A program made the position numbers and the translations under genes. DNA of 7,563 bases from a virus (lineage: Duplodnaviria; Heunggongvirae; Uroviricota; Caudoviricetes), in the IMG/VR virus record IMGVR_UViG_2711768001_000001; one strand, 5' to 3'. Positions 6,854-7,455 of the stretch are shown here, in pieces (within the stretch, counting starts at the first letter, position 1; the number at the start of each line of letters is the position of its first letter). The notes beneath the pieces are model-generated. The model did no database searches, was not told the DNA's origin, and saw nothing but the letters and a program-made list of their open reading frames with translations.

Positions 6854-7106
6854 CTACCCCCCAAGGCATTGGATCCTGATGTACTCCTGAAGCATTCTCA
6901 ATGCTGTCTGGTCGCTGATGATTCCGTCCCGGATACCGAGAACGTTTCGTCCAGCAACTGGAGAGAGTTCGACGGTGGCATCATTGCCCATGCCGGAGGC
7001 GCTGGAGGTTTCGGCTGAGGATGGCACAGGGCATTTTCCTTTGACGAGCACCCGACCACCATTATCAAGCTTGCGCCGAAGAGCATCATTTTCAGCTTTC
7101 GCATCA
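6854..7106 (-). CDS. Rz: Rz i-spanin, C-terminal portion (N-terminus lies in the N gap)
   Basis: Frame reads DAKAENDALRRKLDNGGRVLVKGKCPVPSS...QEYIRIQCLGG then TAG at 6856..6854. The DAKAENDALR segment and overall pattern match the lambda Rz C-terminal region as recalled. The 65-aa track ORF 6854..7051 is its GTG-initiated tail. Confidence 0.8.
6898..7104 (-). CDS. Rz1: Rz1 o-spanin outer-membrane lipoprotein, 68 aa, embedded in Rz in the +1 frame
   Basis: ATG at 7104..7102 gives MRKLKMMLFGASLIMVVGCSSKENALCHPQPKPPAPPAWAMMPPS..., with a lipobox (VVGC) and proline-rich mature region closely resembling lambda Rz1 as recalled. Wholly inside the Rz frame, the hallmark embedded arrangement. Confidence 0.85.
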   Translation of the reverse strand: MRKLKMMLFGASLIMVVGCSSKENALCHPQPKPPAPPAWAMMPPSNSLQLLDETFSVSGTESSATRQH

Positions 7107-7356
7107 NNNNNNNNNNNNNNNNNNNNNNNNNNNNNNNNNNNNNNNNNNNNNNNNNNNNNNNNNNNNNNNNNNNNNNNNNNNNNNNNNNNNNNNNNNNNNN
7201 NNNNNNNNNNNNNNNNNNNNNNNNNNNNNNNNNNNNNNNNNNNNNNNNNNNNNNNNNNNNNNNNNNNNNNNNNNNNNNNNNNNNNNNNNNNNNNNNNNNN
7301 NNNNNNNNNNNNNNNNNNNNNNNNNNNNNNNNNNNNNNNNNNNNNNNNNNNNNNNN
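7107..7356. other. Assembly gap / masked sequence (250 N)
   Basis: Uninterrupted run of N from 7107 to 7356. Confidence 0.99.
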
Positions 7357-7455
7357 ACCATCGTTACCACCTGGGCCAGTGATTAACACAGATGCTATAG
7401 CAACAGCCCCGCCACCAATAGCAACTGCAACAGCCTTGCGTAATGATGGCGACAT
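7357..7455 (-). CDS. SAR endolysin (phage 21 R / RrrD-type lysozyme), N-terminal 33 codons; remainder lost in the N gap
   Basis: ATG at 7455..7453 (SD GAGGTG 5 nt upstream) gives [33 protein letters not shown], near-identical in pattern to the Gly/Ala-rich signal-arrest-release domain of phage 21 lysozyme as I recall it ([33 protein letters not shown]). Confidence 0.8.

Follow-up and report, generated by a model that had tools for sequence, protein, structure and literature searches.

Does a run of 250 N in the middle of a phage lysis cassette stand for 250 nucleotides of DNA, or does it hold the place of something longer? The question is raised by a 7,563-nt stretch of tailed-phage sequence (IMGVR_UViG_2711768001_000001), the whole of which we call "the window". 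Its phage genes all read on the minus strand and its sole N run occupies positions 7107..7356, exactly 250 bases, between the beginning of an endolysin gene and the end of the spanin gene Rz. We put the probability at about 0.9 that the window is a piece of a Shigella sonnei prophage remnant bounded by IS1 and IS2, that its lysis cassette is of the phage 21 type, and that the 250 N are a placeholder for 613 nt of that cassette.

Both sides of the run carry recognizable lysis genes. Codons 1-33 of a SAR endolysin of the phage 21 R/RrrD type lie at 7357..7455 (minus strand, ATG at 7455..7453); these comprise the signal-anchor-release segment only, and the visible part stops one residue short of the Pfam lysozyme domain. 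An earlier note on this DNA, made from the letters alone, had placed the N-terminus of a SAR endolysin beside the gap, and 29 of the 33 residues are indeed identical to RrrD (PDB 4zpu). Eleven of the 20 residues from 8 to 27 are Gly, Ala or Ser, and they are preceded by R6 and K7, a composition consistent with a SAR segment. On the other side, 6854..7106 (minus strand) starts with the third base of Rz codon 73 and continues through codons 74-156 to the stop codon, as placed by comparison with Rz at 4020..4490 in the S. sonnei chromosome L005 (CP146292.2). What is visible of the inner-membrane spanin is thus its C-terminal, periplasmic portion. The note had recognized the final 83 codons of Rz here, and 7105..6854 does contain 83 codons plus a stop and is assigned to PF03245 at 48 bits (E 1.8e-12; cut-off 25.4 bits). 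The outer-membrane lipoprotein spanin Rz1 (68 aa) is complete at 6898..7104 on the minus strand, inside Rz in the +1 frame; as the note had said, only 2 nt separate its ATG from the gap (7104..6898; PF06085, E 3.8e-21). It has a lipobox, VVGC, with Cys19, and a mature part of 50 aa with 8 prolines, as is found in outer-membrane spanins.

Complete chromosomes with the same gene order were retrieved with the window's large terminase protein (5343..3940). L005 and L006 match the window at 7,313 of its 7,313 non-N bases, both IS junctions included, and the identity extends into a different IS element at each end, over 86 nt on the right and 90 nt on the left. L010 (CP022672) is 100% identical to the window except for an extra insertion in the portal pseudogene, and L003, L007 and L011 show 2 mismatches against the non-N bases. 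L010 is S. sonnei strain 866 (PMC6128377), and L007 and L011 are clinical isolates of S. sonnei (PMC12511311). The two flanks are 613 nt apart in all six of these S. sonnei loci (3625..4237 in L005), and the 613-nt filler is itself identical in L003, L005, L006 and L010, with 3 positions differing in L007 and L011. The earlier note had argued from typical gene sizes that 250 nt was too short and that roughly 600 nt were missing. On both counts the estimate was close to what is found in six of six complete S. sonnei chromosomes with the same IS junctions, among them genomes that are 100% identical to the flanks. From the identity of these flanks we infer the same 613 nt in the source isolate.

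The spacing is not peculiar to S. sonnei. In a spread sample of E. coli genomes, matches to both flanks were 613 nt apart in 10 of 11 cases and 705 nt apart in the other, and the E. coli and phage relatives among the matches listed, both close and distant, have a spacing of 613 nt except for phage 2B8, which has 705. A spacing of 250 nt was found neither in the six S. sonnei loci nor in any of the sampled E. coli or phage matches.

Set against the complete loci, the N run at 7107..7356 takes the place of endolysin codons 34-165 and stop (399 nt) and of 214 further nt of Rz, reaching from codon 1 through codon 72 and two bases of codon 73 (comparison with L003, L005, L006 and L010). Hidden under the run are therefore endolysin residues 34-165, among them the whole catalytic domain, Rz residues 1-72 with the membrane anchor and the first stretch of coiled coil, and the Rz1 ribosome-binding site. 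In L005 the full endolysin has 165 aa, with PF00959 at residues 34-156 (E 1e-43), and matches PDB 4zpu (RrrD) and 3hde at E about 1e-104; the endolysin of the S. sonnei locus and RrrD (4zpu) are about 94% identical, with 10 differences in 165 residues. E35, D44 and T50, which we take from their positions in R21 to be the Glu-Asp-Thr catalytic triad, are present in the L005 segment LEGVSYILYKDIIGVWT and fall under the N run in the window. The full Rz of L005 has 156 aa (PF03245, E 1e-29). Its N-terminus, MSRVTAIISALVICIIVRLSWAV, also hidden in the window, is hydrophobic, with Arg18 in place of the Cys of the E. coli copies. Upstream of the Rz1 ATG, L005 has an in-frame TAG at a distance of two codons and an AAGGAG motif at 8-9 nt.

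The complete loci also settle how the reading frames on the two sides are related. Across the N run an ORF finder returns a single frame of 185 aa, 6898..7455, with a run of X in its middle, a false fusion against which the earlier note had warned. With the 613 nt in place, as in L005, the frame runs into stops at 4021, 4150 and 4234, and the fused endolysin-Rz1 ORF is thus an artefact. The note had further taken the position of the endolysin fragment in the Rz1 frame, and not in that of Rz, as a sign that the frames were scrambled. This reading does not hold: the starts of R (3526) and Rz1 (4240) are in one frame in L005, and a frame error as the source of the shared frame was rejected, since the arrangement is native in the complete loci. 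The difference between the two lengths, 613 - 250 = 363, equals 3 × 121, which makes 613 congruent to 250 modulo 3, and the native frame relation therefore happens to survive across the N run.

Short N runs that stand for longer intervals are familiar from draft bacterial assemblies, in which the flanks are colinear with complete genomes, as they are here (L005 and L006 have both flanks at 100% identity and in the same order, 613 nt apart where the window has 250 N), and in which ORF finders read through the N and return chimeric ORFs. The present run differs from them in its length: the usual nominal gap length at NCBI, and the common convention in drafts, is 100 N, and a run of 250 may also have been inserted by the data provider to mask sequence. 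Of the earlier description of the run as a nominal-length scaffold gap, the part that stands is that the length is not to be trusted; the part that does not is the choice of a scaffold gap, which is here indistinguishable from a mask of arbitrary length. The comparison with complete loci supports the view that the length carries no information under either origin. A consensus built on a reference, with N at low coverage, was discarded as an explanation, as it would have retained the reference length of 613.

Why an assembly would break at this point may be related to copy number. In E. coli the 613-nt stretch is multicopy, a genome having it at a median of 2 places and at no more than 8, and short-read assemblers break at stretches of this kind; judged by these E. 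coli counts, repetition is a plausible cause of the break. The window ends inside an IS copy on either side, which is what one would expect of a contig assembled from short reads. For the large terminase protein of the locus, 4353 collection blocks have 5-10 kb as the length of the longest contig that carries it, as would be the case if draft assemblies of S. sonnei repeatedly yielded an IS-bounded contig of about 7.5 kb. Most draft assemblies seem to assemble this IS-bounded contig; we counted this against the placeholder reading, together with the departure of 250 from the usual 100 N and the proneness of the region to IS-mediated change.

Two other accounts place a real difference under the N run. 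One takes the run as an in-place mask of a true 250 nt, in an isolate with a 363-nt (121-codon) deletion that would leave a truncated endolysin or an R-Rz fusion. A deletion of this size, being a multiple of three, would be in frame, some stretches of sequence collections are indeed masked as N, and the prophage is decaying in other respects, with IS2 in the holin, amber codons in the portal gene and substitutions in R and Rz that are all non-synonymous. The congruence modulo 3, however, is expected one time in three by luck alone, and a 250-nt spacing occurs in none of the six complete S. sonnei loci and in no sampled E. coli or phage match. We regard this account as very improbable indeed.

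The second account is that the run conceals a rearrangement specific to the isolate, for example a further IS element with loss of part of R and Rz, which broke the assembly. The locus is an IS hot spot, with IS2, an IS110-family element and IS1; L010 carries an additional IS630-like element, and L009 has IS elements in place of its cassette. Yet both edges of the gap are native R and Rz sequence without an IS end, and an insertion alone would leave the 613 native nt where they are; a deletion ending at these very edges would be needed as well. For the same reasons (native edges, and 613 nt of native sequence missing) a simple IS insertion was set aside as the main explanation, and the rearrangement in its fuller form is still very improbable. 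Taken together, the possibility that the isolate differs under the gap, whether by the in-frame 363-nt deletion or by an isolate-specific insertion or rearrangement in R/Rz, has only a small probability.

Beyond the endolysin, the window reaches only the end of the holin gene. The last 23 nt of a class II holin like S21 (6 codons plus stop) lie at 7455..7477 on the minus strand, and the rest lies beyond IS2, outside the window. The holin stop, TAA, has one base in common with the endolysin ATG. One copy of the 5-bp IS2 target-site duplication, GTAAG, is found at 7473..7477 (minus strand); bases 3504..3508 of the E. coli relative L004 overlap both IS2 junctions of L005. The left end (IRL side) of IS2 follows at 7478..7563 (plus strand) and the contig stops inside it; window positions 7563..7478 equal L005 3418..3503 at 100%. 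The transposase of IS2 reads away from the lysis genes. In L005 the element measures 1331 bp (2173..3503) and is 99.9% identical to copies annotated as "IS3-like element IS2". The intact holin of L004 has 71 aa, ends in FKIREDKRKAARGE and has PF04971 on record. The insertion falls at codon 66/67 of this gene, and the window contains no intact pinholin. A second element, of 1450 bp and belonging to the IS110 family, lies 7-10 nt upstream of the holin ATG in the complete S. sonnei genomes.

The organization of the cassette is that of phage 21 and of the DLP12 prophage of E. coli K-12 (essD, rrrD, rzpD/rzoD): the gene order is holin, endolysin, Rz with Rz1, the holin stop overlaps the endolysin start, and Rz1 is embedded in Rz. 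As in S21, the holin has the dual start MYQM and the C-terminal tail KRKAARGE. The locus departs from phage 21 and DLP12 in that its holin is cut by IS2, with the IS110-family element just upstream of the holin ATG in the complete genomes, and the window departs further in having N for the central part of the cassette. The spanins also resemble those of lambda. Both pairs belong to PF03245 and PF06085, and in both the whole of Rz1 is encoded inside Rz in the +1 frame. Rz1 has a lipobox Cys and is rich in proline in its mature form, and Cys residues occur close to the C-terminus of Rz. The N-terminus of Rz in the complete S. sonnei loci, MSRVTAIISALVICIIV, is the same as that of lambda, whereas the C-terminal half of Rz has diverged; lambda Rz1 has 60 aa, as against 68 here.

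In an intact cassette of this kind, lysis would follow the three-step scheme established for phage 21 and lambda. The pinholin, a class II holin, would depolarise the inner membrane. The SAR endolysin would by then have been exported with an uncleaved N-terminal anchor and be held inactive while tethered; on depolarisation the anchor would slip out of the membrane, and the enzyme would enter the periplasm, refold and cleave murein. As the last step, a complex of Rz and Rz1 spanning the periplasm would fuse or disrupt the outer membrane. Activation of this endolysin by anchor release would be predicted from its identity of about 94% to RrrD/R21 (4zpu, 3hde, 3hdf), and the scheme as a whole from the near-identity to phage 21 R and RrrD and from what is known of the lambda and phage 21 spanins. 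The reading frames of R, Rz and Rz1 are still open in the identical complete loci, and that of the holin is broken. Since IS2 splits its holin gene and the prophage around it is defective, the cassette probably no longer works as a programmed lysis system. Two IS elements interrupt the late operon, and this together with the broken holin makes programmed lysis unlikely.

The remainder of the window is also that of a decaying prophage. At its left end, positions 1..90 are the end of an IS1 (11254..12021 in L005) whose insertion point is 4 nt inside the major capsid gene. Beyond this IS1, L005 has chromosomal genes, among them a lactonase gene that is likely pgl, which indicates that the prophage genes from the capsid onwards have been deleted. 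The portal gene (PF06381; 2474..3940, minus strand) is a pseudogene in which two codons of the E. coli copy have become ambers, W59* and Q126*; the stops are at 3766..3764 and 3565..3563 and leave three ORFs of 58, 54 and 360 aa. Between R and Rz of S. sonnei (L005 3526..4490) and the closest E. coli copy (L004), seven of seven differences are non-synonymous: P41L, D127Y and R136C in R, and C18R (in the membrane segment), A60D, N74D and W91R in Rz, with differences visible in the window at 7054 and 7105. Such a pattern suggests that selection on the cassette may have been relaxed.

Between the Rz and small terminase genes, and outside the lysis cassette, lies a gene for a DedA/VTT-domain membrane protein of 170 aa (6253..6765, plus strand; PF09335, E 9e-14). 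It is kept in the E. coli relatives, where it is annotated as "DedA family protein", and looks like cargo of the moron type. A 254-aa ORF at 5294..6058 (minus strand) lies upstream of the large terminase gene and overlaps it. It has no Pfam hit on record and is called "hypothetical" by RefSeq in one relative; in another, a different gene at the same position is annotated as the small terminase subunit. The 254-aa ORF probably encodes the small terminase in phages of this type.

The locus is prone to IS-mediated change and varies among S. sonnei strains. L009 (CP029794.1) has IS elements in place of the whole lysis cassette and the DedA gene, and the insertion in the portal pseudogene of L010 (CP022672.1) is IS630-like, with a 343-aa DDE_3 transposase.

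What lies under the N run is an ordinary lysis cassette that has been publicly sequenced and whose biology is already known, and the run itself is an artefact of assembly or masking. Its relevance is to annotation hygiene only. The run gives rise to a spurious 185-aa ORF in which the endolysin N-terminus is joined to Rz1, it hides the endolysin catalytic domain, and it would lead a pipeline to call both the endolysin and Rz truncated. Should the isolate after all carry a change in R/Rz under the gap, the IS-driven decay of this S. sonnei prophage remnant would have advanced by a further step.
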